A DNA stretch of 32,788 nucleotides from a phage. The stretch lies in NCBI GenBank assembly GCA_029942545.1, contig GCA_029942545.1_4114.3. One strand, given 5' to 3'. Under the pieces are notes generated by a model that did no database searches, was not told where the DNA came from, and worked only from the letters and a program-made list of their open reading frames with translations. Position 1 is the first letter of the stretch. Every line of letters starts with the position of its first letter. The position numbers were made by a program, and so were the translations under genes. Shown here in pieces: positions 19,889 to 30,623 of this stretch.

Positions 19889-19936
19889 ATTTCCCTCCTT
19901 ATTCATTATATCATATTTACCCCATAAAGAAAACCC
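19889..19936 (-). promoter_or_regulatory. promoter/RBS of first array gene (variant, no hairpin)
   Basis: Minus strand GATATAATGAATAAGGAGGGAAAT then ATG; shares a divergent intergenic region with the plus-strand promoter at 19937. Confidence 0.5.
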
Positions 19937-19990: not shown

Positions 19991-20218
19991 ATGACAAATA
20001 CTCTTAAGTACTACCTCAATACTCTAAATGAACTAGAGTACGGGGAATTTCTCTCGGATAGTTCGTGGCTAATTGAGCTAAAAAATTATAATAGTCCAGG
20101 ATGCACCCTTATGATGAACAATGCAATTGATACCCTCATTGTGAGTATTTTACACAGCAACATCTGCGGGGATAGCAATAAACAATTATCAAAAATCTTA
20201 GTACTGCTATCTATATGA
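19991..20218 (+). CDS. small protein, ~60-aa paralog family member
   Basis: ORF track; AAGGAG SD; family features (N-terminal YY, central C-rich motif, hydrophobic C-terminus). Confidence 0.7.
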   Translation: MTNTLKYYLNTLNELEYGEFLSDSSWLIELKNYNSPGCTLMMNNAIDTLIVSILHSNICGDSNKQLSKILVLLSI

Positions 20219-20418
20219 ACATTGAACAGTACTACATCGATGCACTACCAACAAAAGGTCTACGAGAAAGCCTACTGTATACACAAAATACTTTTATACA
20301 CTACAAACGTTGTCCTAAACTCCTGAACTCGTACAGGAGTAATATCATAAGAAATGCTTTACAAGGGGCAGAAAGTATGCAATACTATTATATCCTTGCC
20401 CTTTTAATCGAGTACTAA
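20215..20418 (+). CDS. small protein, paralog family member
   Basis: ORF track; 4-nt overlap with upstream gene; motifs MNIEQYYID, ends LALLIEY. Confidence 0.7.
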   Translation: MNIEQYYIDALPTKGLRESLLYTQNTFIHYKRCPKLLNSYRSNIIRNALQGAESMQYYYILALLIEY

Positions 20419-20419
20419 T

Positions 20420-20629
20420 ATGAATACTGAACATAAAGAATTCTACACCAAATACCTTAGCAACGAAGAACAATTGTTTCTAAGGAGTGTATCACCTGTA
20501 AGTACCAATACTCACTTCGGTAGAGATTGCTTTAATAATTGTATACGTAGTACTCTAGAAGCAATCGAATGCAATAACAAAAATATTATGTACTCAGGTT
20601 TAATAGGACTAATCTACTTCTATGAATAA
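20420..20629 (+). CDS. small protein, paralog family member
   Basis: ORF track; starts MNTEHKEFYTKYL; central FNNCIRS. Confidence 0.7.
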   Translation: MNTEHKEFYTKYLSNEEQLFLRSVSPVSTNTHFGRDCFNNCIRSTLEAIECNNKNIMYSGLIGLIYFYE

Positions 20630-20816
20630 TCATAAAGATTTCTATGGTAGTAAACTACACAAGCAAGACCAGCTATCATTCTCTTTAGCACCACCTATGA
20701 GAAAGGATAATCTATATTACAATTACGATTTCAGGATGGCGACACGTTATGCAATAGAACATCAGTTCCCTGAAACTAAGTACCGCTCTATCCTGAACCT
20801 CATCTTTAAGTTCTAA
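20622..20816 (+). CDS. small protein, paralog family member
   Basis: ORF track; starts MNNHKDFY; 8-nt overlap with upstream gene. Confidence 0.65.
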   Translation: MNNHKDFYGSKLHKQDQLSFSLAPPMRKDNLYYNYDFRMATRYAIEHQFPETKYRSILNLIFKF

Positions 20817-20826
20817 AAGGTGCTAT

Positions 20827-21036
20827 ATGAAAACTACAAACATTCATCAGTACTACATAGATATTCTCCCTAAAGATGTACAGTTCATACTTAAACAAGA
20901 ATTCAGTACTTTAAAAAAACTAAAAAGAACCGCACCTTCAGCAATCATCCAGCACCAAAAAAATGTCGTGCGTAATATACTACAAGGTACACCAGGGACC
21001 GAGTACTTTAATATAGTAAGGCTAATTACATTATAA
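20827..21036 (+). CDS. small protein, paralog family member
   Basis: ORF track; starts MKTTNIHQYYIDILP; resembles 20215..20418. Confidence 0.7.
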   Translation: MKTTNIHQYYIDILPKDVQFILKQEFSTLKKLKRTAPSAIIQHQKNVVRNILQGTPGTEYFNIVRLITL

Positions 21037-21221
21037 TGAATCATATAAGCTACTACTACCAACAACTATCCGACAGAGACAAGTACAGTCACAACTCCCA
21101 TGTGTGGTACTACAAACGCGGCAGTATAAGAGACAAACAACATTACTTCTGTATTTCTATTAAAGAAGCACTGACAACTAAGTACACGTACCGAGCAGTA
21201 ATTAAACTTATTGAAATGTAA
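21036..21221 (+). CDS. small protein, paralog family member
   Basis: ORF track; ends KYTYRAVIKLIEM, matching the next gene's KYTYREVMKLIAI. Confidence 0.7.
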   Translation: MNHISYYYQQLSDRDKYSHNSHVWYYKRGSIRDKQHYFCISIKEALTTKYTYRAVIKLIEM

Positions 21222-21229
21222 GGAAGAAA

Positions 21230-21412
21230 ATGAACATAGAATTCTATTTAACTAAACTACAACACGCCGAAAGATTCAACTTCAATAAGTTCAATATTTT
21301 CTACAATTGCGGGAACAAAAAAGATAAACACACCTTCCTATATGTCGTCACAAGAGATGCACAAAACGAAAAGTACACATACAGAGAAGTAATGAAACTA
21401 ATCGCTATTTAA
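21230..21412 (+). CDS. small protein, paralog family member
   Basis: ORF track; close paralog of 21036..21221. Confidence 0.7.
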   Translation: MNIEFYLTKLQHAERFNFNKFNIFYNCGNKKDKHTFLYVVTRDAQNEKYTYREVMKLIAI

Positions 21413-21420
21413 GGAATACT

Positions 21421-21600
21421 ATGCAACAATTCTATAGAGAACGTATAACCATAAAAGACCGTTTCATGTACGACACCTTCGTGAAGTACTACAAACTAGG
21501 AACAAAAAGTACTAAAAATATTAATCTCAATAGCTGCATTTATGCTGTACTAACACAAGATAATCCCTACAGGGAAATCCTCGCCCTGGCATCTATATAA
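21421..21600 (+). CDS. small protein (59 aa), probable paralog family member
   Basis: Not in ORF track (below 60 aa); hand-called ATG about 21421 after AAGGA SD, stop TAA about 21598-21600; fills the only gap in the array; starts MQQFYRERI. Confidence 0.5.
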   Translation: MQQFYRERITIKDRFMYDTFVKYYKLGTKSTKNINLNSCIYAVLTQDNPYREILALASI

Positions 21601-21610
21601 AGGAAACCAA

Positions 21611-22282
21611 ATGAAACTTAATGCACACAGCAAACAATACCTTAAGCACTTTAAGTACCTCAATAGTATTCAGGCAGAATCAGTTACATCTGCATATACG
21701 TATCACCCGAATGTACTAAAGAAACGAAATAAAAAGGAAAAATCCAGTACAAATGGAGTTAACGTATCAAAGAACCTTGAATTGTACATGAAGAAAAATA
21801 ATATAGCTGTTCATTATATGAATATCTATAATACTGATTTAAAAGTATTGAGTACTAATACGAGCACAAAGGTACTAAAGAACGCATCCTTCATCATCAA
21901 TATGCAGTTGGATAATACCCCGTGCACTTTAATGCTATACTTCGGGAATACATACTTCTTCGGGAATTGTAACACCTCCCACGATGTCAATACAGCACAA
22001 TTCCAAATGGGTGGCATATACTCTACTGATGCAGAAAAAGTACACGAGAATATGCACTTCTGGCAAGCACAACGTACAGAAGAAACTGATACAGTACTAC
22101 AATTCCTCAAAGAACTAGAACACAAAGAACTACAGGAAGAAGAACTATTCATGTACAGTACTGTAATCGATAATCCAGTACTCTATAAAAACGCGTACAA
22201 TCTGACAAAACATGTACAGGAACTTATCAGTACTAATAAGAAAATGCATCACCTCATTACGTATATTACAAACTATGTATAA
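21611..22282 (+). CDS. hypothetical protein (223 aa) embedded in the small-ORF array
   Basis: ORF track; AAGGAAACC SD-like; no family motifs. Confidence 0.7.
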   Translation: MKLNAHSKQYLKHFKYLNSIQAESVTSAYTYHPNVLKKRNKKEKSSTNGVNVSKNLELYMKKNNIAVHYMNIYNTDLKVLSTNTSTKVLKNASFIINMQLDNTPCTLMLYFGNTYFFGNCNTSHDVNTAQFQMGGIYSTDAEKVHENMHFWQAQRTEETDTVLQFLKELEHKELQEEELFMYSTVIDNPVLYKNAYNLTKHVQELISTNKKMHHLITYITNYV

Positions 22283-22457
22283 AGAATACTACAGGGAACA
22301 TCTCCCAATGCATCTCCAGCACCATATACCAACAGAACCAATAGGAATAAAAGATCACGCAAAGATAATGTTTCAACAATGTACTAAGTACACGCTCATA
22401 TACGATGATAATCCATATATGCTGTACTACGTAGTAATGTTAACATTCAGGTACTAA
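22275..22457 (+). CDS. small protein, paralog family member
   Basis: ORF track 22212..22457; start moved to internal ATG (MYKEYYREHLP) that matches family N-termini and overlaps the upstream stop. Confidence 0.7.
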   Translation: MYKEYYREHLPMHLQHHIPTEPIGIKDHAKIMFQQCTKYTLIYDDNPYMLYYVVMLTFRY

Positions 22458-22458
22458 C

Positions 22459-22644
22459 ATGTATAAAGAATACTACATAGAGAAACTCCCAATGTATCTC
22501 CAACACCTTGTACCAACAGAACCATTGGGTATAGAAAAAAACTACGAAAAAGACTACTTCATTCAGTGCACTAAATCCTCGATATATATTGAAGACTATA
22601 ATCGAGTACTGTATCACATCCTTTTACTAATATATAGGTACTAA
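22459..22644 (+). CDS. small protein, paralog family member
   Basis: ORF track; MYKEYYIEKLP ... LLLIYRY; 1-nt intergenic gap. Confidence 0.75.
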   Translation: MYKEYYIEKLPMYLQHLVPTEPLGIEKNYEKDYFIQCTKSSIYIEDYNRVLYHILLLIYRY

Positions 22645-22645
22645 T

Positions 22646-22828
22646 ATGCACAAAGAATACTACACACAATTTCTCCCCAGCATTTTTGAACACTACGCCA
22701 GATACAAAGTCCCCCTGGATAACGATTTGGCAGTACTGGGATTCAATAACTGCATAGAACGAAGTATAGAAAATAGTAGTAGTTATGACCAGCTATATAA
22801 CACTATCCTACTTATATTCAGGTACTAA
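22646..22828 (+). CDS. small protein, paralog family member
   Basis: ORF track; MHKEYYTQFLP ... ILLIFRY. Confidence 0.75.
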   Translation: MHKEYYTQFLPSIFEHYARYKVPLDNDLAVLGFNNCIERSIENSSSYDQLYNTILLIFRY

Positions 22829-22829
22829 C

Positions 22830-23018
22830 ATGCATAAAGAATACTACACAAAATATTTCCCAATGTACCTCAGAACTAATCTATTAGATAAACCTCGCGG
22901 TATCAATGCACAAAATGATAAAGTGTATTTTACTATGTGCACTAAAGCATGTATACTAGATTTTGACAGCTATCATCGAGTACTGTATCATACCCTGTAC
23001 CTAGCTTTCGTATTCTAA
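22830..23018 (+). CDS. small protein, paralog family member
   Basis: ORF track 22785..23018; start moved to ATG 22830 (MHKEYYTKYFP) matching family. Confidence 0.7.
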   Translation: MHKEYYTKYFPMYLRTNLLDKPRGINAQNDKVYFTMCTKACILDFDSYHRVLYHTLYLAFVF

Positions 23019-23027
23019 GAGAACAAT

Positions 23028-23213
23028 ATGCATAAAGAATTCTACTTAAGCCATCTGGATCTAAACTCCCAAATGCTTATACCACTAATCCCAATAGATA
23101 TCAAGGATAAGAAAAATACCGAACAATTCATTTACCATACACAGTGTGCGATCACCCCAAATTACATTCCATATGAATTGTACTACATTCTCGCCCTAAT
23201 ATATAGGTACTAA
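23028..23213 (+). CDS. small protein, paralog family member
   Basis: ORF track; MHKEFYLSHL ... LALIYRY. Confidence 0.75.
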   Translation: MHKEFYLSHLDLNSQMLIPLIPIDIKDKKNTEQFIYHTQCAITPNYIPYELYYILALIYRY

Positions 23214-23214
23214 T

Positions 23215-23400
23215 ATGCATAGAGAATACTACACACAATTTGTTAAAGGGAACTACAAACATGCCGTACCCAGAACCCCTTTAAATTCTCATGACCCAAG
23301 TACTATATTCTTGTTTAATGACGCAATACGTACAGTACTCAATACTAAAGATGAAGATGTGCAGTACGTATTCTTACTATTACTTATATACAGACACTAA
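23215..23400 (+). CDS. small protein, paralog family member
   Basis: ORF track; MHREYYTQFV ... LLLIYRH. Confidence 0.75.
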   Translation: MHREYYTQFVKGNYKHAVPRTPLNSHDPSTIFLFNDAIRTVLNTKDEDVQYVFLLLLIYRH

Positions 23401-23405
23401 CTAAT

Positions 23406-23588
23406 ATGAATAAAGAACATAAAGAATTCTATATAAGAAAACTAACATTCGTCCCCGTAAGAATATATAAAGAATGCGACCCAAGATTATACCTATGGCA
23501 CTTCAATGAGTGCATAAAAGATTCTATATACCCTAAGAACTATAAAGAACAATTGTGCTCAGTACTAACACTAGTACTATCATATTAA
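23406..23588 (+). CDS. small protein, paralog family member
   Basis: ORF track; MNKEHKEFYIRKL; central FNECIKDSIY. Confidence 0.7.
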   Translation: MNKEHKEFYIRKLTFVPVRIYKECDPRLYLWHFNECIKDSIYPKNYKEQLCSVLTLVLSY

Positions 23589-23603
23589 TTAATAGAGAAT
23601 ACT

Positions 23604-23795
23604 ATGTATAAAAACTTCTATATAAGTAAACTAAAAGAAAATGAACAAGTATGGATTAGATCTATAATTCCACTGGCATTTAATAGATATGCATTTAACA
23701 GATGTACCGAGATTGCTATAGACCCTTATAATATTAAAGAGAATGTACAGTATAATCAGTACTACTATATCTTAATGCTTATATATAGGAAGTAA
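23604..23795 (+). CDS. small protein, paralog family member (last of array)
   Basis: ORF track; MYKNFYISKL ... ILMLIYRK. Confidence 0.7.
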   Translation: MYKNFYISKLKENEQVWIRSIIPLAFNRYAFNRCTEIAIDPYNIKENVQYNQYYYILMLIYRK

Positions 23796-23909
23796 TTAAA
23801 CACAAGTAGACAGGGGAAGCTCCTAGTGAACAACCTTTATGTACAGGCGAATTGTTAAAATTCAGCCTGGACAAATGCGATCACTAGGATTCTCCCCAGG
23901 CTAAACCCC

Positions 23910-24000
23910 GTAATCATAGGTAGTCATAAGTAATCATATATAAACATTTAAGTAATCATTTATAATCACTGTAGTGATCAGTAGTGATCAGTAGTGAGTA
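23910..24000. repeat. direct repeats: GTAATCA-type heptamers and three tandem 10-bp units
   Basis: GTAATCAT occurs at least 3 times with a related TAATCAC, followed by AGTAGTGATC x3 in tandem (about 23970-24000). Confidence 0.6.
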
Positions 24001-24129
24001 CTAGAGTACAGGAATGTTCACGTTTAATCAAGAACGTAGCAGTACTGATATGTCACTAAGTAGGCAGAGGAAGTCTGCCGTACTTTTTAGTTTCCAAGCT
24101 CCTTTTCCATTTTTCAAATTACATCAAAT

Positions 24130-24164
24130 GTAATCAAAAGTAATCACGCAATGATTAGTACTGA
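24130..24164. repeat. GTAATCA repeats including an inverted pair
   Basis: GTAATCAAAAGTAATCACGCAATGATTAG: two direct copies plus inverted TAATCA/TGATTA around CGCAA. Confidence 0.55.
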
Positions 24165-24423
24165 ATTATTACTTTCACCTTAATTACAATTACCCTTTTA
24201 CCCGTCGGGGTAAAATTCCATTACCCCTTGAGGCTCCAGCAAAAAGTTGGTTAGTACTCCATCCTAAATCTCGATCCTAAAAATTTTGGAGTACCTATGA
24301 AATAAAAGTTGGATCTTCGAAAGTTGAAATTTACGTTGGGACGTTTATGATTTGTGGGATATAATGATGTTTGTAGACGGGTAGTTCTCAAGAATATCAG
24401 TACTGAATAATGAAAGAAAGTTA

Positions 24424-24451
24424 TTGACATTATGATTCAGTACTGTATAAT
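24424..24451 (+). promoter_or_regulatory. strong sigma70-like promoter in ORF-free region
   Basis: TTGACA (24424-24429), 16 nt containing CAGTACTG, TATAAT (24446-24451); no ORF of meaningful length downstream. Confidence 0.55.
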
Positions 24452-24457
24452 GTTCTA

Positions 24458-24656
24458 CATAGAGAGATGAGTTGCTGCCAACAATTCATTTACTCTACCT
24501 CCTGTCGTGAGACAGTACAGAAAAGATAGTTCCTCCTGTGGTGGTACATCTTTTTGAACCTCATATGAAAATCGTAATAACAGTACTGATATTAACAGAA
24601 TGGTGTCAGTACTGATTTTAATCTAAAGCATTATGCCACCAGCTTGTGCTGGTGGA
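24458..24656 (+). ncRNA. candidate small non-coding RNA (about 200 nt)
   Basis: Downstream of promoter 24424-24451; longest ORF about 20 aa; two CCTCCTGT(C/G)GTG copies (anti-SD-like CCUCCU); ends at 8-bp hairpin CCACCAGC-ttgt-GCTGGTGG (24636-24655) without a clear U-tract. Confidence 0.25.
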
Positions 24657-24796
24657 TTCCCTCTAACAGTATTCAGTACTACATGATAGTCTTCATCCTC
24701 CTAGGGTAACATAGTGAGGGCTATGATGGCAGTACTGAATACTCCTTTCACAAGATAGATCTATGGTATAGTACTGACGGATTTTGGGCGTAGTTA

Positions 24797-24968
24797 CCCT
24801 GGATGGATTTTGGACGTAGATATGTCTAGCCCTCCAGAAGTCTGGAAGTAAAGATGGCTATCCATCTAGACGGCTAGACGGCTAGATTTCTGGATGGCTG
24901 GATGGCTAGACGTTTGGACGGCTAAACGGCTAGATGGTTACACGTCTGGAAGTATAGACGGCTAAATC
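24797..24968. repeat. iteron-like array of short direct repeats
   Basis: Repeated 7-11 bp words: ACGGCTA(G/A)A x5, TGGATGG x3, TTGGACG x2, GTCTGGAAGTA x2, mostly in one orientation at roughly 9-11 bp spacing. Confidence 0.6.
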
Positions 24969-25130
24969 AAAATTTTATTTTGTTTTTTCCAATAGTTCCC
25001 CTACCGCGTGGGGATAGTTTCCCCGCAGTATCTGGAGTTAGATTTTTCTGAATCTGGAATCATTATCTTATAAACTGGGGGCAATGTCAACGGCCTGGAC
25101 GGATATTTTTAAAAATTTTTTCAGTACTGA

Positions 25131-25182
25131 ATTTTGGGCGTAACTATGCACCCGGTGGGCTTGAGTCTTTCTCGACTTGATG
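25131..25182 (+). repeat. ~50-nt repeated element, copy A
   Basis: ATTTTGGGCGTAACTATGCACCCGGTGGGCTTGAGTCTTTCTCGACTTGATG; shares ATTTTGGGCGTAA, GCACCC and CTTTCTCG..T.ATG blocks with copies at 25347 and 28955. Confidence 0.5.
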
Positions 25183-25245
25183 AAAATATTATAGCAGTAC
25201 TGAAAAAATAAAGCAATACCCTAAACGCAAAAAGTTTTAATTAAT

Positions 25246-25274
25246 TTGCTTGCCATCCTGGGGCGTACTATGAT
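25246..25274 (+). promoter_or_regulatory. possible promoter (TTGCTT -35-like, TATGAT -10)
   Basis: TTGCTT, 17 nt, TATGAT, upstream of repeated element copy B; weak match. Confidence 0.25.
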
Positions 25275-25346
25275 ACTATTATTCAGTACTGAGAAAGTGC
25301 TATGACCTGCTAAGGTGCGGGAGTGTATCCTTTTTAAATTATATGA

Positions 25347-25399
25347 ATTTTGGGCGTAATTCCGCACCCCCCAGGGGTATCCGCTTTCTCGCGTCTATG
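25347..25399 (+). repeat. ~50-nt repeated element, copy B
   Basis: ATTTTGGGCGTAATTCCGCACCCCCCAGGGGTATCCGCTTTCTCGCGTCTATG. Confidence 0.5.
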
Positions 25400-25657
25400 T
25401 AGTAATTATACGCTTTTTCGGTGCTGAGTCAATAGCTAAAAACAAAATAATTGAAAATAATTTAACGCGTTTAAACGGCCCGTAAAGCCCTGGTTAGCTG
25501 GTGGCGGTGCAAATGTATAGCTTAGGTGTATTAATGCGTTAGAAAGCGGCTGAGGCCGTTTTATGGGGTGTATAGTAGTGATTTGGTTGATTCAGTACTG
25601 AAAGATAGTTCCCCTATATAGAAAGAAAACTATTTTAAAAGTATTTGTAGAAAGTAC

Positions 25658-25720
25658 TTGCAAAGTATTGGGAAAGGTGTAGAATGTTTTACATCGAGAC
25701 GGGGGATACGCTCCCGACTC
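25658..25720 (+). promoter_or_regulatory. early-type promoter plus downstream stem-loop (PeSL-like)
   Basis: AGTACTTGCAA, 16 nt, TAGAAT, GTTTTACATC, then GGGGGATACGCTCCC hairpin; gene 25743 follows. Confidence 0.55.
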
Positions 25721-25742
25721 ACTTTTAAAAGAGATTAAAACG

Positions 25743-26105
25743 ATGGCGACTCAAATCAATACTATCATGCTTAACCTGGTTTCTTTCCGTGAAGAGATGA
25801 AAGATCTTCCCGCTGAGACTGTACGGATTCACATTGCAGCTTATCGGGAATTGATTGCAATGTTACCGCTTAAGCGTGAACAGTATGCAGCTACTGCAAT
25901 GCTGGACGCAATGATACATAAGATGATCCAGACTGATTTAACGATGGCTTATCAGTACATGGGCGAAATGTTTGCAGTGTATAGCAAGCCAGTACCAGGA
26001 ATGGAAAGTACAGAAGTATTGCACGGCTTAAACTTAAAACAAGATGCATGGGATAATATGCCTCGTTTCCTGGTATGGGCTGATAGTGGAAAGATTTACG
26101 AATAA
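25743..26105 (+). CDS. hypothetical protein (120 aa)
   Basis: ORF track; downstream of promoter/stem-loop; GC-richer codon choice. Confidence 0.7.
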   Translation: MATQINTIMLNLVSFREEMKDLPAETVRIHIAAYRELIAMLPLKREQYAATAMLDAMIHKMIQTDLTMAYQYMGEMFAVYSKPVPGMESTEVLHGLNLKQDAWDNMPRFLVWADSGKIYE

Positions 26106-26119
26106 GTTTAATAAAGTAC

Positions 26120-26178
26120 TTGCAAACTAAGTTTAAAAGCGTATAATGTTTTACATCAGGTGGGGAATAGTTCCCCAC
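26120..26178 (+). promoter_or_regulatory. early-type promoter plus stem-loop (PeSL-like)
   Basis: TTGCAA (26120-26125), 16 nt, TATAAT (26142-26147), GTTTTACATC, hairpin GTGGGGAATAGTTCCCCAC. Confidence 0.6.
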
Positions 26179-26198
26179 TATATAAGAGGATTAAAAAA

Positions 26199-26438
26199 AT
26201 GGCTAAATCAAAAATGTTCTTAGGTCACAAAAACAAAACTCAATGGAATGTAAGCCTTTGGATTAATAACGACGAATCATTATACCGGTTGGCCCAGGAC
26301 TTTATTGCCGCTAACACTAATCGTAATGATGCGGCCCGTCATATGATGCTATTTTTAGAACAGACTGGACAAGATAAAACACCGGACGGCTTTAAGTATA
26401 GCACTACTGCGATCCGTGCGGCGATGGTTGGAATGTAA
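26199..26438 (+). CDS. hypothetical protein (79 aa)
   Basis: ORF track 26160..26438; start moved to ATG 26199 (MAKSKMF) after AGAGGA SD; the longer ORF would begin inside the 5' stem-loop. Confidence 0.7.
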   Translation: MAKSKMFLGHKNKTQWNVSLWINNDESLYRLAQDFIAANTNRNDAARHMMLFLEQTGQDKTPDGFKYSTTAIRAAMVGM

Positions 26439-26459
26439 GAGAATAGATTAAAAGTACTA

Positions 26460-26484
26460 TTGCACGGTGATAGTACTTTATAAT
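26460..26484 (+). promoter_or_regulatory. possible promoter
   Basis: AGTACTATTGCAC ... TTTATAAT upstream of gene 26521; spacer about 13 nt for TTGCAC, so register is uncertain. Confidence 0.3.
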
Positions 26485-26520
26485 AGATTTCTTTTATACA
26501 ACAACGATAGGGGTAACAGC

Positions 26521-26787
26521 ATGAATATTATATACTTTGCAACGCGTGAACTTGCTCGGATTGCCGCACGCCAGGACGGGGCGACGTTTAAAGATATGGG
26601 CGTACAATCTGAACGTGGTAAACGTTGGGCCGTAGTAAAGCAAAGTACAGCCCGATCAATTCAGTACTGGCTATCTGCTTTAAAGCGTCCTGATAGTGTA
26701 TCGCGTCGCGTGGTAGAAATAAAGCACGACCGCAAGGGCAACCGCGTTACAGTGTACAGTACTAAAAAGATTGCAGTACTTGAATAA
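26521..26787 (+). CDS. hypothetical protein (88 aa), basic
   Basis: ORF track 26467..26787 (GTG start); start moved to ATG 26521 (MNIIYFATREL) after AGGGGT SD. Confidence 0.65.
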   Translation: MNIIYFATRELARIAARQDGATFKDMGVQSERGKRWAVVKQSTARSIQYWLSALKRPDSVSRRVVEIKHDRKGNRVTVYSTKKIAVLE

Positions 26788-26908
26788 AAGTACTTGACCG
26801 TTATCCGGCTTAGTGAGATAATACTTACAAGCCGGACACAAGGCGATAGCCCATAGGGTGCGGGAGTGTATCTATAGGAAAGTACTAAAAACTATTTTCA
26901 AAAAGTAC

Positions 26909-26936
26909 TTGCAAACTATGTTTAAAGGCGTATAAT
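26909..26936 (+). promoter_or_regulatory. early-type promoter
   Basis: TTGCAA, 16 nt, TATAAT, GTTTTACATC; followed by a ~90-nt leader with a 9-codon mini-ORF (MKNSPDKIV). Confidence 0.55.
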
Positions 26937-27026
26937 GTTTTACATCAGGACGGGGAATGAAATAAGTAACTCCCTGTTAAGTAGTCCAGGAGTAAGACGT
27001 ATGAAAAACTCCCCTGATAAAATAGT

Positions 27027-27054
27027 TTGACAATAGAAAGTAAAAGCGTATAAT
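27027..27054 (+). promoter_or_regulatory. early-type promoter
   Basis: TTGACA (27027-27032), 16 nt, TATAAT (27049-27054), ACTTACATC. Confidence 0.6.
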
Positions 27055-27086
27055 ACTTACATCAACTAATGAATGAGGGTTACAAA

Positions 27087-27698
27087 ATGAAAACTATCAC
27101 TACTACTACTTTTGTTATGGCTTTTTCTGAACTGAACGCAGAACAACAAACGGCGGCTATCGAACTGGTTCGGGATCGGGAACGTGCAAGTGAGGATAAT
27201 TTCTTTGCTGAATCAGTACTGGAATACTATAAAGAAACAGTACTACCAGAATACGGCATAGATGAAGCTGAATTGCAATACAGTGGTTTTTGGTCGCAAG
27301 GTGACGGTGCATCAATCAGTACTGACCACGTTGACGCTGAGAAGTTTTTACGCAAGGTTAAGGCGTTAACGAAATATCGTTCCATCCGTCACCTGTTGAA
27401 CGAAGATGATTTGGAAATGAGTGTAGAACGTTCCCAATCGCGTTATGCACACGAAAACACGGTAGGCGGTTGCGTTGATACTCGCTACACTGATTTAACT
27501 GTAAAACAGGCTGCATTAGCTGAGGATCTGGAAAACTTACTGACTGATACTATCCGAGAATTATCTTGTAAGCTGTACCGTGATTTAGAAAATGCTTATG
27601 AAGACCAGTTTACTACTGAAAACATTGTAGCACTGATCGAGGGTAACGAATATCAATTTAACGTTATCGACGATGTAGTAGAATCTATCGCATATTAA
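27087..27698 (+). CDS. hypothetical protein (203 aa), acidic
   Basis: ORF track 27069..27698; start moved to ATG 27087 (MKTITTT) after GAGGGT SD; the 27069 ATG has no SD. Confidence 0.7.
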   Translation: MKTITTTTFVMAFSELNAEQQTAAIELVRDRERASEDNFFAESVLEYYKETVLPEYGIDEAELQYSGFWSQGDGASISTDHVDAEKFLRKVKALTKYRSIRHLLNEDDLEMSVERSQSRYAHENTVGGCVDTRYTDLTVKQAALAEDLENLLTDTIRELSCKLYRDLENAYEDQFTTENIVALIEGNEYQFNVIDDVVESIAY

Positions 27699-27715
27699 TT
27701 CAGTACTGAATCAAT

Positions 27716-27735
27716 GGCGGGGAATGGTTCCCGCC
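27716..27735 (+). promoter_or_regulatory. solo stem-loop of the PeSL type (no promoter)
   Basis: GGCGGGGAATGGTTCCCGCC between genes 27087 and 27757, preceded by TTCAGTACTGAA palindrome. Confidence 0.5.
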
Positions 27736-27756
27736 TATATCCCAGGAGTAAGAGAA

Positions 27757-27993
27757 ATGATCGAACAAATCAAAACTACAACACCAAACGTAACGGGTAC
27801 AGTATCACACTTCATTGGTGACGATTCGCGGGGCGTTCCCTATTGTGCGGTACATGTAAACCAAAATGGCGACTACTGGCTAACGGTTTACGGTTCTTAT
27901 TCTTTCGGGCGTAGTGCACACCAAAAGATCCTGGATAAAGTACAACCAACGGGTAAAAATATCACCGCTGAGATGTTTTATAAAAAGCACTAA
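27757..27993 (+). CDS. hypothetical protein (78 aa)
   Basis: ORF track 27724..27993; start moved to ATG 27757 (MIEQIKTT) after AGGAG SD; the longer ORF would start inside the stem-loop. Confidence 0.65.
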   Translation: MIEQIKTTTPNVTGTVSHFIGDDSRGVPYCAVHVNQNGDYWLTVYGSYSFGRSAHQKILDKVQPTGKNITAEMFYKKH

Positions 27994-28000
27994 AAAGTAC

Positions 28001-28059
28001 TTGCAAAGTAATTAGATTAACGTATAATACTTTATATCGAGAGCGGGAATAGTTCCCGC
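28001..28059 (+). promoter_or_regulatory. early-type promoter plus stem-loop (PeSL-like)
   Basis: TTGCAA (28001-28006), 16 nt, TATAAT (28023-28028), hairpin GCGGGAATAGTTCCCGC. Confidence 0.6.
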
Positions 28060-28078
28060 CTTTACTGAGGATTATCTA

Positions 28079-28363
28079 ATGAGTAAAGTAATAAAGTACA
28101 ATGTGTTAAGCAAGTCATTGTCTATAAGTGAGTGCACCGATGGTTTTTGGCTGTACGATGAAACGCGTGGCATGAATTTAGCTATGCAGGAGAAAACTAC
28201 TGATGCGGCATATCTTAAAGCACTGGAATACTACCAGAAGCGTTTAAAGGAAGTAGAAAACGATTATAATAACCTGAAAGCGAAAGTAGATCATTTCATC
28301 GGGCAAGTGGTAGAAGATGACGAGGACGGGCACTACTGCGACCGTTGCGGATCTTACAATTGA
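28079..28363 (+). CDS. hypothetical protein (94 aa) with C-terminal CxxC
   Basis: ORF track; TGAGGA SD; C-terminus HYCDRCGSYN. Confidence 0.7.
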   Translation: MSKVIKYNVLSKSLSISECTDGFWLYDETRGMNLAMQEKTTDAAYLKALEYYQKRLKEVENDYNNLKAKVDHFIGQVVEDDEDGHYCDRCGSYN

Positions 28364-28380
28364 GTACTGAGGATTATCTA

Positions 28381-28584
28381 ATGAGTGATTTAATTAAACG
28401 TATCAAAGAGCTTGAAGAAAAAGAATTGCAGTTGATCGGGTTACGGAATAAAGTATTCCATGATTTAGGTGGCTTCATTAATGCCTGGGATAGTGGCGAT
28501 CCTGATGCGTTACCTGCTAACCGCCAGGCGATGATCAATGATGTGCGTGGTGTCTTTGATTATGTTTTAAAGCAATTAAATTAA
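28381..28584 (+). CDS. hypothetical protein (67 aa)
   Basis: ORF track 28345..28584; start moved to ATG 28381 (MSDLIKRIKEL); its 5' leader CTGAGGATTATCTAATGAGT duplicates that of gene 28079. Confidence 0.65.
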   Translation: MSDLIKRIKELEEKELQLIGLRNKVFHDLGGFINAWDSGDPDALPANRQAMINDVRGVFDYVLKQLN

Positions 28585-28592
28585 AAAAGTAC

Positions 28593-28652
28593 TTGCAATT
28601 AGTTTCCAGTACTGTATAATAGTTTACATCAAGGGGAGAAATGGTTCTCCCC
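28593..28652 (+). promoter_or_regulatory. early-type promoter plus stem-loop (PeSL-like)
   Basis: TTGCAA (28593-28598), 16 nt containing CAGTACTG, TATAAT (28615-28620), hairpin GGGGAGAAATGGTTCTCCCC. Confidence 0.6.
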
Positions 28653-28671
28653 ACTAATAAGGAGTTTTACA

Positions 28672-28893
28672 ATGGCTAATATCACTACTCTTTCCCAGCT
28701 TGAAGCACTGGTTAAATCTATGCGGGCACATGCTGACAATATTGGCGTAGAAGATCCCGCAGTATGTTTTTGCGACGAAATAAATGATGATACGCTCGTC
28801 ATTGCAGAAGTGCAAGACGTTTCTAACTATTCATCGCGTTACACTGGCGGCGTAGCAAAGAAAGGTGATTTTTGTTTATATCTTACTAAGTAA
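28672..28893 (+). CDS. hypothetical protein (73 aa)
   Basis: ORF track; AAGGAG SD; followed by terminator. Confidence 0.7.
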   Translation: MANITTLSQLEALVKSMRAHADNIGVEDPAVCFCDEINDDTLVIAEVQDVSNYSSRYTGGVAKKGDFCLYLTK

Positions 28894-28897
28894 TACA

Positions 28898-28926
28898 GAG
28901 GGGATCAAACGATCCCCTTTATTTTG
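28898..28926 (+). terminator. intrinsic terminator
   Basis: AGGGGATC-aaac-GATCCCCT stem then TTTATTTT. Confidence 0.7.
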
Positions 28927-28954
28927 CAGTACTGAATCATTTAATAGACGGATC

Positions 28955-28992
28955 TATGCACCCTGTGGGTTAGTGACTATCTCGTCTTTATG
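28955..28992 (+). repeat. ~50-nt repeated element, copy D (3' blocks only)
   Basis: TATGCACCCTGTGGGTTAGTGACTATCTCGTCTTTATG, located between terminator 28898-28926 and promoter 29061. Confidence 0.4.
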
Positions 28993-29060
28993 TAAGTATT
29001 ATGCCAGTACTGGATGCAGTTGTCAAGACTTTTTTTTCAAATACTTTTATATTAAAGTAC

Positions 29061-29117
29061 TTGATAATAGTTTTTAAATGCGTATAATGTTTTACATCTA
29101 ATCGGGAATACTCCCTA
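29061..29117 (+). promoter_or_regulatory. early-type promoter with weak downstream hairpin
   Basis: TTGATA, 16 nt, TATAAT (29083-29088), GTTTTACATC, GGGAATACTCCC. Confidence 0.5.
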
Positions 29118-29138
29118 GTACTAACAAAGGATATACAA

Positions 29139-29438
29139 ATGAAAACTGCAATCATCGCCCTGGCTTTATCTGTTTCCTCTTTCGCTGTTAACGCTTCCGT
29201 TGATGTACCGAAAGAAAAATTCATTCAGTGCACTGTTGCAATGACTAACGAGGAAACGGCTGAGATCGTTACCAAATCCCTGGAACTGGCCCCTGCAATG
29301 TTTGCTAATGGCCCGTACCATGAAGAAGATGATCAGGGTAGCACGACCATCTATTACGATGCAAAAAGTAAACGCGGTTCTGTCACTGTAATGGATACAG
29401 AGAAAGTTACATTCACTGGCGTAATTAATTGTTTATAA
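29139..29438 (+). CDS. small secreted/periplasmic protein (Sec-type signal peptide)
   Basis: ORF track; N-terminus MKTAIIALALSVSSFAVNA then SVD: basic n-region, hydrophobic core, AxA-type cleavage site; AAAGGA SD. Confidence 0.75.
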   Translation: MKTAIIALALSVSSFAVNASVDVPKEKFIQCTVAMTNEETAEIVTKSLELAPAMFANGPYHEEDDQGSTTIYYDAKSKRGSVTVMDTEKVTFTGVINCL

Positions 29439-29454
29439 TATAGTACTGAATCAC

Positions 29455-29487
29455 TAGCCCACTTATACAGTGGGCTTTTTTGTTTTT
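29455..29487 (+). terminator. intrinsic terminator
   Basis: AGCCCACT-tataca-GTGGGCT then TTTTTTGTTTTTG; preceded by TAGTACTGAATCACT. Confidence 0.75.
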
Positions 29488-29535
29488 GTAGTATCGTAGT
29501 ACTGGTATACTTTGAAAATAGTTTTAAAAAAGTAG

Positions 29536-29563
29536 TTGACATTACCAGGGAAAAGCGTAGAAT
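29536..29563 (+). promoter_or_regulatory. early-type promoter
   Basis: TTGACA (29536-29541), 16 nt, TAGAAT, GTATTACATC; followed by ~100-nt leader with mini-ORF MKNWTRQTNFDKLT. Confidence 0.55.
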
Positions 29564-29677
29564 GTATTACATCAAGACGGGGAACATTAAGTAGACCGCC
29601 AGTAAGTCGAATGAAAAACTGGACACGTCAAACAAACTTTGATAAACTAACTTAAACTTTAATTGAGGATTTATAAA

Positions 29678-30160
29678 ATGGCTAATGTAAAATCATTTCT
29701 GAAAGCACTGATTTCTAACGATACTGTTATTGCTGCTGAATTGCTGGCTGACCTGGATAATGATACCATGAAAGCAGTACGCAACAATTTTAACATTGCT
29801 TACAGTGAAGCGAAAGAACTACAAGCCAAAAAGGTAGCAGAACTGGAAGAACAGAAAAAAGCCCGTGAAGCAGAACTGCAAGCAACAATAGAAAGTATTC
29901 AGGCGGCGGTGTCTGGTTTAGATCTGGAAGTGGTTATTGAAATGGCTCATAAAGCCCTGGCGGTTAAGTACGGTGAAGATAAGCCGGAATCTAAGCCTAA
30001 AAAATGGATTCAAGAACGTGTTACTGTTGTCCTTGATAACGGGGAAGAACATTTGATTCCTGTACGCGGTAACTGCATTGCGGTAGTACTGGATGCTATT
30101 AAAGAAAGCGGTATGACTCGCGAGGAATGGATCGAAGCTCACCGCAAAATTGAAGCATAA
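29678..30160 (+). CDS. hypothetical protein (160 aa), Ala/Glu/Lys-rich, helical
   Basis: ORF track 29663..30160; start moved to ATG 29678 (MANVKSF) after GAGGAT SD. Confidence 0.7.
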   Translation: MANVKSFLKALISNDTVIAAELLADLDNDTMKAVRNNFNIAYSEAKELQAKKVAELEEQKKAREAELQATIESIQAAVSGLDLEVVIEMAHKALAVKYGEDKPESKPKKWIQERVTVVLDNGEEHLIPVRGNCIAVVLDAIKESGMTREEWIEAHRKIEA

Positions 30161-30180
30161 CAATTAAAGTACTGAATCAC

Positions 30181-30208
30181 TAGCCCACTGTATAAGTGGG
30201 CTTTTTTG
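30181..30208 (+). terminator. intrinsic terminator (near-duplicate of 29455-29487)
   Basis: AGCCCACT-gtataa-GTGGGCT then TTTTTTGTG; same TACTGAATCACTAGCCCACT context. Confidence 0.75.
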
Positions 30209-30361
30209 TGTCTATAGTATTCCAGTCCACTAGCACCGCCTAGAATCGATTCTAACGCATTAAACTGATTATCTGATGCATCGCCCTAGCTGGTGGCGTT
30301 AAGGTCGTTAGAATGCGATTGAGAGCGTTTAAAGTATTTTGCAAAAAGTAATAAAAAGTAC

Positions 30362-30389
30362 TTGCACGATTAAGAGAAAGGCGTATAAT
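30362..30389 (+). promoter_or_regulatory. early-type promoter
   Basis: TTGCAC, 16 nt, TATAAT (30384-30389), TAGTTACATC. Confidence 0.5.
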
Positions 30390-30434
30390 TAGTTACATCA
30401 AGGCAAGACACCTTAACTAACTGAGGATTTAAAG

Positions 30435-30575: not shown

Positions 30576-30595
30576 GATAGTCTTTAAAAAAATAG

Positions 30596-30623
30596 TTTGA
30601 CAATAGTTTTAAGTACTGTATAA
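30596..30623 (+). promoter_or_regulatory. early-type promoter
   Basis: TTGACA (30596-30601), 16 nt containing AGTACTG, TATAAT (30618-30623), ATTTTACATC. Confidence 0.6.

Follow-up and report, generated by a model that had tools for sequence, protein, structure and literature searches.

Probable non-coding control region around a genome end of Asteriusvirus phages carries an array resembling the operators of the host repressor MetJ

Phages such as T5 and SPO1, as well as several jumbo phages, have long terminal repeats with non-coding regions at their boundaries. The left end of T7 comprises a 160-bp terminal repeat, a short-repeat array (SRL) whose units are not met boxes, and the strong host promoters A1–A3, and transcription-driven DNA entry has been shown for this phage. 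Lambda cos, with IHF, is a packaging site assisted by a host factor. In T5, Repeat Region 3, a putative injection-stop locus, overruns the inner repeat boundary by 270 bp (Davison, bioRxiv 10.1101/866236; annotation in Wang et al., AY587007). We analyzed a window of 32,788 nucleotides (GenBank assembly GCA_029942545.1, contig GCA_029942545.1_4114.3) from an Asteriusvirus, a PBECO4/121Q/G17-like jumbo phage of E. coli of about 350 kb, in which positions 23796–25742 form an ORF-free stretch. This stretch is, in our judgment, probably a control region, non-coding and conserved, that surrounds one physical end of the Asteriusvirus genome, and T5 Repeat Region 3 appears to be its closest known analogue. 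Both are untranslated over 1.2–1.9 kb, extremely dense in repeats and palindromes, and lie across the inner edge of a long direct terminal repeat, with an overrun into unique DNA of 263 bp in the window against the 270 bp of T5. Both are also better conserved than the neighboring early genes and rich in predicted host-protein sites, and T5 relatives of Vibrio and Aeromonas carry met-box arrays in the counterpart of Repeat Region 3. However, met boxes are missing from T5 itself, which has DnaA boxes and Fur-box-like palindromes, whereas the region in the window lacks DnaA boxes, and the two phages are unrelated (a 122-kb siphovirus and a T4-like jumbo myovirus of 350 kb). With the T7 left end the locus shares the order of its elements, namely the end, short-repeat arrays, strong inward-facing sigma-70 promoters in the first few hundred bp and inward early genes, but the T7 repeat of 160 bp contrasts with one of 21 kb, and transcription-driven entry is conjectured for the phage of the window. 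Lambda cos is similar in that sites for host DNA-binding proteins adjoin the terminase cut, but we saw no IHF consensus in the region by eye.

As the initial annotation had proposed, the stretch is repeat-dense and has no ORF of 60 aa or longer on either strand. The resulting gap of 1,947 bp is the largest ORF-free one in the window, the runner-up measuring 420 bp. The homologous junction is also the largest gap in the genome of the complete relative fEgEco12 (1,320 bp, followed by 797 and 661 bp), its smaller size being due to an ORF annotated in just one of the two repeat copies. Inside 23796–25742 the longest ORF has 59 aa (minus strand, 24251–24430) and no Shine-Dalgarno sequence, and a comparison of small ORFs among relatives identified no conserved coding across the region. 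Among eight Asteriusviruses, positions 24059–25249 are 88–98% invariant, with mean identities to the window of 0.965–0.987 as opposed to 0.73–0.85 for the first genes. The other features proposed initially could be located as well. The hairpin TTTTACCC-GTCG-GGGTAAAA (loop TTCG in G17) lies at 24196–24215, one base from the reported 24195–24214; the palindrome TCAGTACTGA occurs in five exact copies; several families of direct or tandem repeats were detected; and the presumed ~50-nt elements correspond to a ~65-nt repeat (25128–25193 vs 25344–25410) and to a 78-nt early-promoter cassette at 25626, 26088 and 26877. The promoter, hairpin, palindromes and repeat families are all well in excess of chance, and the motif CAGTACTG has 10 copies in the region and 33 in the window against 0.55 expected. 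What the earlier reading had missed is the boundary of a terminal repeat and the match of an 8-bp array to a host repressor operator.

By comparison with relatives, the boundary, at 24058/24059, is the left physical end of the virion DNA, the first base of a ~21-kb direct terminal repeat (DTR) and the inferred terminase cut. Seven related records with assigned ends share window base 24059, and the region therefore straddles the DTR start: fEgEco12, vB_Ec-M-J, ELP-22, CRJP21, E9.1 and BF17 begin at AGTAGGCAGAGGAAGTCTGCC, and G17, in reverse complement, ends there. These records are not fully independent, because the orientation of some may follow that of earlier entries, and the position was transferred from relatives 92–95% identical to the window, whose own sequence is continuous across the junction. 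The ends of fEgEco12 were assigned by PhageTerm and backed by restriction digests (PMC13070987), and repeats of ~20 kb are listed for four other records (PMC13070987; PMC6563267). DTR lengths range from 20.7 to 21.5 kb, and the end divides the region into 263 bp on the unique side and 1,684 bp on the repeat side. The two DTR copies of G17 (1–20668 and 350150–370817) are identical over 20,668 bp, the identity stopping at the end base, and fEgEco12 reads the same from position 353741 as from position 1. Three further jumbo genera, represented by fENko-Kae01 (PhageTerm), XbC2 and pEa47, start at a homologous TATCT..CTGAAGTC site, behind which each has 1.3–1.8 kb of gene-free DNA with the elements in the same order as in the window.

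Phased repeats of the GTAATCA type, with a period of 10 bp, flank the end on both sides. The last 263 bp of unique genome (23796–24058) contain an imperfect 23-nt inverted repeat (23807–23829/23881–23903), about five copies of GTAATCAT (23910–23968), 2.7 copies of GTAGTGATCA (23971–23997), both with the 10-bp period, and the conserved CAGTACTGATATGYCACTA immediately ahead of the cut. This side varies among Asteriusviruses (positions -40 to -130 differ between G17 and the window), with the last 19 nt conserved, and at the homologous place of GAP32 the cut is preceded by CAGTACTG-N14-CACTA. On the DTR side, 3.3 copies of the 10-bp-period repeat GTAATCAAAA (24114–24146) are candidate terminase or end-binding sites, and vB_Ec-M-J has exactly one 10-bp unit more. 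A search for a motif common to both DTR boundaries gave no obvious candidate, the far boundary in G17 having ATGCGTA-type repeats. A scan for terminator-like structures also revealed, 4 nt inside the end, the plus-strand hairpin GGCAGA-ggaag-TCTGCC followed by GTACTTTTTA (24063–24079), which looks like a terminator for upstream plus-strand read-through in replicative (joined) DNA. Further in, the element GTACTCCATCCTAAATCTCGATCCTAAAAATTTTGGAGTAC (24254–24294), a 7-bp inverted repeat around an A/T tract, is retained near the end in the fENko-Kae01 group, Mimasvirus and Eneladusvirus, and the 50-nt bin that contains it is 100% invariant in the eight Asteriusviruses.

The strong promoter of the initial annotation matches the sigma-70 consensus perfectly (TTGACA-16-TATAAT, 12/12, with CAGTACTG in the spacer; plus strand, 24424–24451). 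It faces inward 366 bp from the end and is the first of a DTR early class that comprises a dozen promoters in the window, all directed away from the end. Its ORF-less transcript (24457–24668, plus strand) could be a leader or small RNA and is predicted to fold into five hairpins, one made by two CAGTACTG motifs (24581–24614) and another coinciding with a Chi hairpin; the folding energy was -66.6 kcal/mol compared with -44.8 ± 4.1 in shuffled sequences (z = -5.27). Four copies of GGATTTTGGGCGTA follow, two at 24776–24822 (plus strand) and the others at 25126–25146 and 25342–25362, and similar ATTTTGGG motifs are found near the repeat end of T5-like phages. Leftward, a promoter at 25062–25090 (TTGACA-17-GATAAT, minus strand) reads into the 8-bp array from about 100 bp away. 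Another minus-strand promoter, TTGCTT-17-TATAAT with CAGTACTG in the spacer (25188–25216), is inferred from reading the sequence; it lies where the ~65-nt repeat first occurs, shares the start region TATAAT-N5-TCATC with the early class and is weaker than the others of the region. Element C (25250–25432) consists of convergent promoters, TTGCCA...TACTAT (25250–25279, plus strand) and TTGACT-16-TATAAT (25405–25432, minus strand), around a conserved long-range stem (GGTGCGG/CCGCACC) whose loop differs between genera; its alignment in eight phages of five genera gave a stem of 12–13 bp with compensatory change in three pairs. The region closes at 25658–25742 (plus strand) with the early-class promoter AAGTACTTGCAA-16-TAGAAT-gtttTACATC, the UTR and the ribosome-binding site of the first DTR gene, whose 5' UTR forms a hairpin (25700–25716) and whose ATG is at 25743.

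Exact Chi octamers (GCTGGTGG) number three in the region and six in the window against 0.38 expected. Two of them form the palindromic pair CCACCAGC-ttgt-GCTGGTGG at 24636–24655, 578 bp inside the end, where the minus-strand Chi faces RecBCD entering at the left end. The G17 record annotates this pair as a terminator; the same palindrome recurs at 484–503 of the fENko-Kae01 DTR, and XbC2 has a minus-strand Chi at 216. The third site (25497–25504, plus strand) has no counterpart at the same place in fEgEco12 or G17. In fEgEco12, 12 of the 36 Chi sites fall in the repeat, which makes up 5.9% of the genome (P = 6e-7), and the 24 outside it are also over-represented relative to the approximately 2 expected. 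The clustering of Chi near a free DNA end is that of RecBCD hotspots, but differs from them in that Chi is enriched throughout the terminal repeat and, less so, in the whole genome. The argument that Chi faces the nearest end is weak because Chi orientation tracks gene orientation genome-wide in fEgEco12, and the whole-genome count led us to drop orientation as proof of end protection. Recombination genes of the T4 type (UvsX/RecA-like, gp32 and gp46/47-like) are annotated in fEgEco12. The initial annotation had offered a replication origin, a packaging or recombination site, and a small-RNA cluster as candidates; with a genome end and three Chi sites inside the region, the packaging or recombination site is the best supported of the three.

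MetJ operators usually contain two to five met boxes. At 24812–24963, 754–905 bp inside the end, the DTR carries 19 in-register tandem 8-bp units (consensus RGAYGKCT; period 8 in TRF) that constitute a predicted MetJ operator array. When a matrix built from the window units only was run against 2 x 20 kb of E. coli K-12, the metJ/metB, metF and metA operators ranked first. Conversely, a matrix from nine E. coli units scored 51.0 at 24868, with 9.0 for the next site in the window and a maximum of 22 in 200 shuffles, and only one such array exists in the fEgEco12 genome of 353.7 kb (49.5 vs 15.4). The E. coli operators are tandem met boxes of consensus AGACGTCT (PMC4239095). They have in common with the array the contiguous 8-bp units, the T|A step at unit junctions and the preferred bases at positions 1–5, 7 and 8, and per-unit quality in the array is equal or better (mean match 5.84/8 vs 5.54/8 for 13 E. 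coli units). They differ in having four or five units, in the three that we examined, rather than 19 (9–29 in other phages), and T at position 6, where G is about as frequent in the array. In addition, the array does not overlap a promoter, lies 90–350 bp downstream of convergent promoters and sits in a phage genome beside a DNA end. Its register is kept between phages because indels are multiples of 8 bp. By sequence tests, the array cannot be told apart from a MetJ operator, save that it is four or more times longer. E. coli has metJ (NC_000913.3, 4128078–4128395), and tblastn found no MetJ homologue encoded by the phage (nothing better than E = 1). A search of the library available to us returned no papers linking MetJ sites to phage genomes. 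The fEgEco12 gene g271, annotated as a 'SAM hydrolase', was not used as a tie to MetJ and SAM, as it has no Pfam match and belongs to a PHROG family of unknown function.

Similar arrays are present in 86 phage records, with hosts in Escherichia, Vibrio, Erwinia, Aeromonas, Salmonella, Yersinia, Serratia, Cronobacter, Klebsiella and Providencia, plus one Xanthomonas. The orders that have MetJ include those of the hosts of these phages, Xanthomonas excepted (PMC4239095); the phage concerned, XbC2, has a 16-unit array. Arrays near genome ends also occur in unrelated phages, among them T5-like phages, other jumbo genera and phiKT-like relatives of T7, which have theirs 40–130 bp from the end. The array is not essential to the module, because met boxes are missing from that slot in T5 and in the Klebsiella relatives Muenster and fENko-Kae01. 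Fur-box-like sites are present in the homologous slot of all three, and none was found in the region of the window at 14/19 or better. An earlier equation of the T5 'DRD' repeats with the 8-mer array was wrong: DRD is GTGCAAATCCGACA, and T5 has no met-box array.

Could the region be something other than a control region around a genome end? Overlooked protein-coding genes are a very improbable answer. Automated annotation of some relatives calls six to nine tiny 'hypothetical proteins' here, and the 59-aa ORF is intact in six of eight relatives, but this ORF has no ribosome-binding site and overlaps the perfect promoter, all ORFs right of 25121 are frameshifted in relatives, the curated annotations of PBECO4, 121Q, G17 and the left copy of fEgEco12 have none here, and the fEgEco12 annotation places g614 in one repeat copy but not in the other, identical one. 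A region devoted mainly to small regulatory RNAs, expressed from seven promoter-like sites, would agree with the unusual structure of the 24457–24668 transcript, with the promoter-flanked stem of element C and its three compensatory pairs in five genera, and with three leftward promoter-like sites that have no ORF downstream. Yet the covariance-model and tRNA scans suggested in the initial annotation turned up neither a tRNA or tmRNA gene nor an Rfam match at gathering score in the window, the region giving just four chance-level matches (E = 2.9–4.9); the covariation is thin, at one sequence per pair; the inverted repeats could work as DNA; and the genome end, the Chi sites and the met boxes would be left unexplained. 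We consider this reading unlikely. A replication origin is quite unlikely. Its promoter could provide a primer or R-loop transcript, as at T4 oriF and oriG or the primary origins of T7, with the repeats organizing initiation, and several features would suit it: the 1.3-kb untranslated, structured transcript of the perfect promoter, the A/T-rich tracts behind the array, a cumulative GC-skew minimum of the whole genome at the repeat start, and a change of skew sign near 24,000, even though genes ahead of it, at 19,991–23,795, already lie on the plus strand. However, DnaA boxes (TTWTNCACA) are absent from 23500–26000 and from the homologous parts of relatives, the would-be iterons match MetJ operators, no initiator gene adjoins the region, and the skew, positive over ~330 kb and negative over just ~24 kb, is unlike the profile of an origin firing in both directions and mostly follows gene orientation.

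Two alternatives involve the array. Its units and the other repeats could serve phage proteins, such as a small terminase, an initiator or a ribbon-helix-helix regulator, and resemble MetJ operators by coincidence or mimicry. We give this some weight but hold it to be improbable. XbC2 retains its array despite a listed host without MetJ, position 6 departs systematically from the consensus, the location of arrays 10–900 bp from DNA ends would suit packaging proteins, and our search of the phage covered MetJ itself and not every ribbon-helix-helix protein. Against this, the array type, including an identical 19-mer, is found in phages whose packaging and replication machineries are unrelated (phiKT-like podoviruses, T5-like siphoviruses and T4-like jumbo myoviruses), the MetJ-bearing host clade is the sole thing that these phages have in common, all three E. 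coli met operators are top matrix matches, and the Klebsiella relatives fill the slot with Fur-box-like sites, the operator of another host repressor. By analogy with T5, the region could alternatively act as a first-step-transfer stop: the far end of the repeat would enter first, ~20 kb of early genes would be expressed, and the repeat-dense inner edge, coated with host proteins (here MetJ), would halt transfer until early proteins release it. In the T5 model the coating host protein is DnaA (Davison, 10.1101/866236). The untranslated repeat region at the inner boundary with its near-identical overrun (10.1101/866236), the 18- and 29-unit met-box arrays beside DnaA boxes in the same region of T5-like Vibrio and Aeromonas phages, and the shared ATTTTGGG-type repeats are consistent with such a stop. 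Still, we find it decidedly doubtful. There are no DnaA boxes here and hence none paired in inverted repeats, A1/A2 homologues are not annotated in the repeat, no report describes two-step transfer in these phages, and even in T5 no defined element has been assigned as the stop signal; moreover, early promoters that all point away from the near end fit T7-like entry with this end leading.

We therefore return to the control region at the genome end, for which the sequence supplies the parts directly (the end, phased repeats, perfect promoter, Chi pair, array, convergent promoters with their hairpin and first early-gene promoter) and a proposed working model links terminase, Chi, early promoters and MetJ. 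In this model, the phased repeats and the conserved CAGTACTG-N-CACTA context would guide terminase to cut at 24058/24059 as terminal repeats are generated. After entry, Chi would make RecBCD loaded at the free end act as a RecA loader instead of a nuclease, and the genome ends could then recombine via their terminal repeats with the help of phage-encoded, T4-like recombination proteins. Host RNA polymerase would begin early transcription at the inward-facing promoters, and host MetJ with its co-repressor SAM may coat the putative binding sites of the met-box array. The main effect would come upon DNA replication, with two arrays per genome: MetJ would be soaked up and methionine and SAM synthesis de-repressed. 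Recruitment of MetJ chiefly for titration is the reading that we prefer. A MetJ filament acting as a local SAM-dependent roadblock or anchor between convergent promoters is a close second, and titration does not explain why the arrays of unrelated phages are close to DNA ends. More generally, though with rather less than even confidence, we suggest that phages of MetJ-bearing gamma-proteobacteria in at least three unrelated lineages (T4-like jumbo myoviruses, T5-like siphoviruses and phiKT-like podoviruses) place giant operator arrays of a host repressor by their DNA ends, with 9–29 met boxes or, in some Klebsiella phages and T5, Fur-box-like sites. Such arrays may recruit the repressor either as a sponge, de-repressing methionine/SAM (or iron) supply upon genome replication, or as a SAM-dependent filament acting as a gate for early transcription, DNA entry or the processing of ends.

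The exact end position and the non-coding status of the region correct inconsistent annotations in many Asteriusvirus records, and a vaguely defined 'repeat-dense hub' becomes testable with existing reagents. The boundary region also gains an identity at the sequence level, as the predicted operator array of a known host repressor with SAM as co-repressor, unique in a 354-kb genome and recurring near the DNA ends of unrelated phages. If MetJ is recruited, the array would amount to a DNA-encoded rewiring of host methionine and SAM metabolism or to a metabolite-gated checkpoint at the genome end, and would bear on the T5-like stop and restart of DNA transfer. If true, such host-takeover elements, acting in cis and made of DNA instead of protein, would form a new class.

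The initial annotation had described 23796-25742 as an ORF-free, repeat-dense region in DNA that is otherwise almost gap-free, and our analyses bore this out: no ORF of at least 60 aa is present on either strand, and the 1,947-bp gap is the largest in the window (runner-up, 420 bp). The same junction is also the largest ORF-free stretch of the complete genome of the relative fEgEco12. The promoter, hairpin, palindromes and repeats that had been pointed out in the region were all recovered: a sigma-70 promoter matching the consensus at 12 of 12 positions (24424-24451), the hairpin TTTTACCC-GTCG-GGGTAAAA (24196-24215), five exact copies of TCAGTACTGA and ten of CAGTACTG (33 in the whole window vs. 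0.55 expected), and many tandem and dispersed repeat families. Searches of the region for tRNAs and Rfam families returned none. More than 35 genomes of Asteriusvirus (PBECO4, 121Q, G17, fEgEco12 and others), which are ~350-kb jumbo myophages of E. coli and Salmonella, carry the region at 92-95% identity, in records that leave it without annotation or dot it with tiny automatic ORF calls (6-9 within the non-coding region in several records). In fEgEco12, the two identical copies of the direct terminal repeat (DTR) are annotated differently: the right one has a call for a 99-aa minus-strand 'hypothetical protein' (g614, 354759-355058), and the left one has none at the matching 1019-1318. Protein coding was rejected because relatives carry frameshifts in the ORFs rightward of 25121; a 59-aa ORF was rejected as a gene because it shares sequence with the perfect promoter and lacks a ribosome-binding site. 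In eight Asteriusviruses, 24059-25249 is invariant at 88-98% and averages 0.965-0.987 in identity to the window, compared to 0.73-0.85 for the first DTR genes. Thus, the non-coding DNA is more constrained than the adjoining genes, as reported for the repeat regions of T5 (Davison, 10.1101/866236).

The region straddles a physical end of the genome, which we placed at 24058/24059 by transfer from relatives. Six records (fEgEco12, vB_Ec-M-J, ELP-22, CRJP21, E9.1 and BF17) start with AGTAGGCAGAGGAAGTCTGCCGTACTTT, the sequence from 24059 onward in the window, and the reverse complement of G17 ends in it. Furthermore, the two copies of the G17 repeat (1-20668 and 350150-370817) are identical, and their identity breaks off exactly at the base matching 24059. 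From the record starts and this limit we infer that the last stretch of the unique genome is 23796-24058 and that the DTR opens with the 1,684 bp of 24059-25742. Records longer than ~365 kb carry the region twice because they include the long DTR. The small plus-strand 'early cassettes' come after the region, and the second DTR boundary lies ~20.7 kb rightward, beyond the window. In G17, this far boundary (...GGGCGGGTAACCT/TAGCGACTTCG) falls within a 250-bp intergenic gap with ATGCGTA-type repeats; comparison of the two G17 boundaries revealed no obvious common motif. A homologous TATCT..CTGAAGTC site is the record start of fENko-Kae01 (by PhageTerm), XbC2 (Mimasvirus) and pEa_SNUABM_47 (Eneladusvirus), and GAP32 carries CACTA/TATCTGTTCCTGAAGTC internally in its record, the counterpart of CACTA/AGTAGGCAGAGGAAGTC in the window. 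In each of these distant jumbo genera, a gene-free 1.3-1.8 kb follows the end and the order of elements is kept.

Read from left to right, the unique side carries 10-bp-period repeats (GTAATCAT, ~5 copies; GTAGTGATCA, 2.7 copies) that vary between phages, and it is closed by a conserved CAGTACTGATATGYCACTA directly before the end. Past the end come a terminator-like hairpin (24063-24079), three more 10-bp-phased GTAATCA units (24114-24146; vB_Ec-M-J has one extra), the hairpin at 24196-24215, an inverted repeat about an A/T tract that is kept across genera (24254-24294) and the perfect promoter, which faces inward. The predicted ORF-less transcript of this promoter (24457-24668) folds at -66.6 kcal/mol, compared to -44.8 +/- 4.1 in shuffles (z = -5.27), and contains a palindromic Chi pair (24636-24655). 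Repeats of GGATTTTGGGCGTA come next, then an 8-bp array (24812-24963), beyond which lie three leftward (minus-strand) promoters (25062-25090, 25188-25216 and 25405-25432) and a rightward (plus-strand) one (25250-25279). The promoters at 25250-25279 and 25405-25432 bracket element C, a 12-13-bp long-range stem that is kept in eight phages of five genera, with compensatory change in three of its pairs. A third Chi site (25497) comes next, and at the right edge the first gene has its early-class promoter, a UTR hairpin and a ribosome-binding site. Promoters of this early class, (AAAGTAC)TTGCAA/TTGACA-N16-TATAAT-N4-5-TACATC, number 12, all on the plus strand between 24446 and the window end and none left of the genome end. 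The DTR early genes (25680-32659) are single-gene cassettes. Each one has its own copy of the same promoter (AAAGTACTTGCAA-N16-TATAAT plus a TACATC start region) and a CGGGG-loop-CCCCG type hairpin in its 5' UTR, and many have their own terminator. On the minus strand (5674-19906), eleven paralogous genes of ~380-405 aa, annotated in relatives as RCC1-like or 'DNA condensation', are mostly followed by their own terminator hairpin; the hairpins seen have a GCCAGTA...AGTACTGGC stem.

Genome-wide in fEgEco12, no palindromic hexamer is over-represented nearly as strongly as AGTACT (977 vs. 119 expected; the next is 2.3-fold); CAGTACTG occurs 221 times vs. 3.8 expected and TCAGTACTGA 55 times vs. 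0.4 expected. The AGTACT motif is ~4 times denser in the terminal repeat. It lies within promoter spacers and terminator stems, upstream of both -35 boxes (AAAGTACTTGCAA) and terminators (AGTACTGAATCACTAGCCC), and also 12-16 bp ahead of the genome end. The whole 354-kb sequence lacks five palindromic hexamers (CCCGGG, CCATGG, AGGCCT, AGCGCT and ACCGGT), suggesting that restriction sites are strongly avoided.

The 8-bp array matches an operator of MetJ, the host methionine repressor; MetJ operators are built from tandem 8-bp met boxes of consensus AGACGTCT (PMC4239095). In register, units 1-10 read GGACGTAG ATATGTCT AGCCCTCC AGAAGTCT GGAAGTAA AGATGGCT ATCCATCT AGACGGCT AGACGGCT AGATTTCT, and units 11-19 read GGATGGCT GGATGGCT AGACGTTT GGACGGCT AAACGGCT AGATGGTT ACACGTCT GGAAGTAT AGACGGCT. 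A tandem scan of two 20-kb E. coli K-12 stretches with a matrix made only from the phage units recovered all three met operators there, well clear of background: its top matches were the metJ/metB intergenic operator, a site directly upstream of metF and a site 20 nt upstream of metA. Conversely, a matrix of nine E. coli units gave an 8-unit score of 51.0 at 24868, compared to 9.0 for the next site in the window and a maximum of 22 in 200 shuffles. The array is likewise unique in complete fEgEco12 (353,740 bp; score of 49.5 vs. 15.4 for the runner-up). Its units average 5.84 of 8 matches, vs. 5.54 in 13 genuine E. coli units, and the register is kept, as array lengths differ between phages by 8 or 16 bp. 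No MetJ homologue was detectable in the phage by tblastn. The array is thus of operator grade. We read it as recruiting MetJ, and binding of MetJ to it is, on balance, probable.

Such arrays recur close to DNA ends across unrelated phages. Using the E. coli-derived matrix, we found arrays in the records of XbC2 (16 units, 648-775), pEa_SNUABM_47 (19 units, 665-816), Serratia BF (18 units, 665-808), GAP32 (16 units, 3466-3593), fHe-Yen9-04 (14 units, 5-116), the phiKT-like podovirus PGT2 (9-12 units, 38-133) and two T5-like phages, Vibrio phage Pontus (18 units near the record start) and Aeromonas phage AhSzq-1 (29 units in the non-coding stretch adjoining A1/A2). With the array alone as query, blastn matched 86 phage records, with many of the hits lying 10-900 nt or less from a record end; the records are from hosts of Escherichia (37), Vibrio (20), Erwinia (7), Aeromonas (5), Salmonella and Yersinia (4 each), Serratia, Cronobacter, Klebsiella and Providencia (2 each) and Xanthomonas (1). 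The exact 19-mer AGACGTTTAGACGGCTAAA is also present in IMG/VR contigs of 36, 42, 64, 109-118 and 357-378 kb, at both ends of several. MetJ is confined to Enterobacterales, Pasteurellales, Vibrionales, Aeromonadales and Alteromonadales (PMC4239095), and the Xanthomonas record, XbC2, is the single exception to MetJ-bearing hosts and a caveat; its host assignment or host range may be inaccurate, or its array may function without MetJ.

Met boxes were absent from T5 and the Klebsiella phages Muenster and fENko-Kae01. Their met-box slot holds clusters of GAGAATGATAATGATTCTCATT-type palindromes (Muenster 785-910 and 1073-1320; fENko-Kae01 695-800; T5 record 9468-9637), in which 14-17 of 19 positions agree with the Fur-box consensus. 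Hence, the operator array of one host repressor seems replaceable by that of another. The T5 repeats named 'DRC/palindrome E-I' are possible Fur boxes. In Pontus (2330-2640) and AhSzq-1 (3820-4182), the array falls in the equivalent of the T5 injection-stop locus, adjoined by DnaA boxes (TGTGGATAA). The closest known system is T5 Repeat Region 3, a candidate injection stop signal: an untranslated 1.2-kb stretch that crosses the repeat boundary, overrunning it by 270 bp, is crowded with repeats and host-protein sites, and is more conserved than the surrounding genes. Assignment to the same family fails, however, because the DnaA-box pairs that define the T5 region are missing here. In possible mode of action, the closest likeness is to the left end of T7, with its end, short repeats and strong inward host promoters.

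Chi sites (GCTGGTGG) are enriched as well, with six in the window vs. 0.38 expected, three of them within the region. The fEgEco12 genome has 36 vs. ~2.3 expected, a ~15-fold excess, and its DTR (1-20993) is another 8-fold denser, holding 12 of the 36 in 5.9% of the genome (P = 6e-7). All but two of the DTR sites are on the plus strand. We dropped orientation as an argument because it otherwise tracks gene strand genome-wide. The Chi closest to the end is the palindromic pair, 578 bp inside; it is kept in fENko-Kae01 (484/496). In XbC2, a Chi in the correct orientation lies at 216.

A replication origin, one of the functions initially proposed, may lie here. The GC skew changes sign at ~24,000, although plus-strand genes begin further left, with those at 19,991-23,795, and the whole-genome cumulative skew has its minimum at the DTR start. 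Against an origin, DnaA boxes are absent from the region, what look like iterons are met boxes, and positive skew extends over ~330 kb, negative skew over only ~24 kb. Transcription or unidirectional replication from the 24059 end fits this pattern better than a bidirectional origin. The ~17 tandem small plus-strand ORFs (60-80 aa) at 19991-23795 have a negative GC skew and a strongly positive AT skew, unlike the plus-strand genes of the DTR; the sign flips at the genome end rather than where gene orientation flips.

The DTR and its coordinates were already known from GenBank and two papers (PMC13070987, PMC6563267), whereas the literature that we searched did not describe the anatomy of the boundary region (met-box array, cross-family recurrence, Fur-like swap and Chi clustering in the DTR). 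The analysis shows where the end lies (transferred from relatives), that the region is strongly constrained, that its promoters match the consensus, that Chi is enriched and that the met-box array is of operator grade. Beyond this, we propose a working model. During DTR generation, the terminase would cut here, recognizing the site by its phased repeats and CAGTACTG-N-CACTA context. On the entering end, RecBCD would reach Chi after 578 bp and load RecA, and the Chi-switched enzyme would favor recombination between DTR copies; the phage also carries UvsX/RecA-like, gp32 and gp46/47-like genes. Host RNA polymerase would fire the inward early promoters, and MetJ bound to its co-repressor SAM would coat the array. 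The SAM/MetJ axis is a known target of phages: SAM lyases encoded by phages induce expression of the met regulon (PMC7877911). The annotation of fEgEco12 g271 (116992-117336) as 'SAM hydrolase' would bear on MetJ and SAM; however, Pfam gives no match for it, and PHROG places it in a family (phrog_4848) of unknown function.

What MetJ on the array would do can be read in several ways. It may form a filament that works, between the convergent promoters at 24424 and 25090, as an anchor or a SAM-gated roadblock, or there may be a T5-like pause of DNA transfer. Both readings account for the position of the array near DNA ends better than titration of the repressor, which leaves it unexplained. We still favor MetJ titration as the main consequence of the array, by analogy with multicopy Fur boxes, which titrate Fur. 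Once replicated, the arrays, at two per genome, would titrate MetJ and thereby de-repress the synthesis of methionine and SAM.
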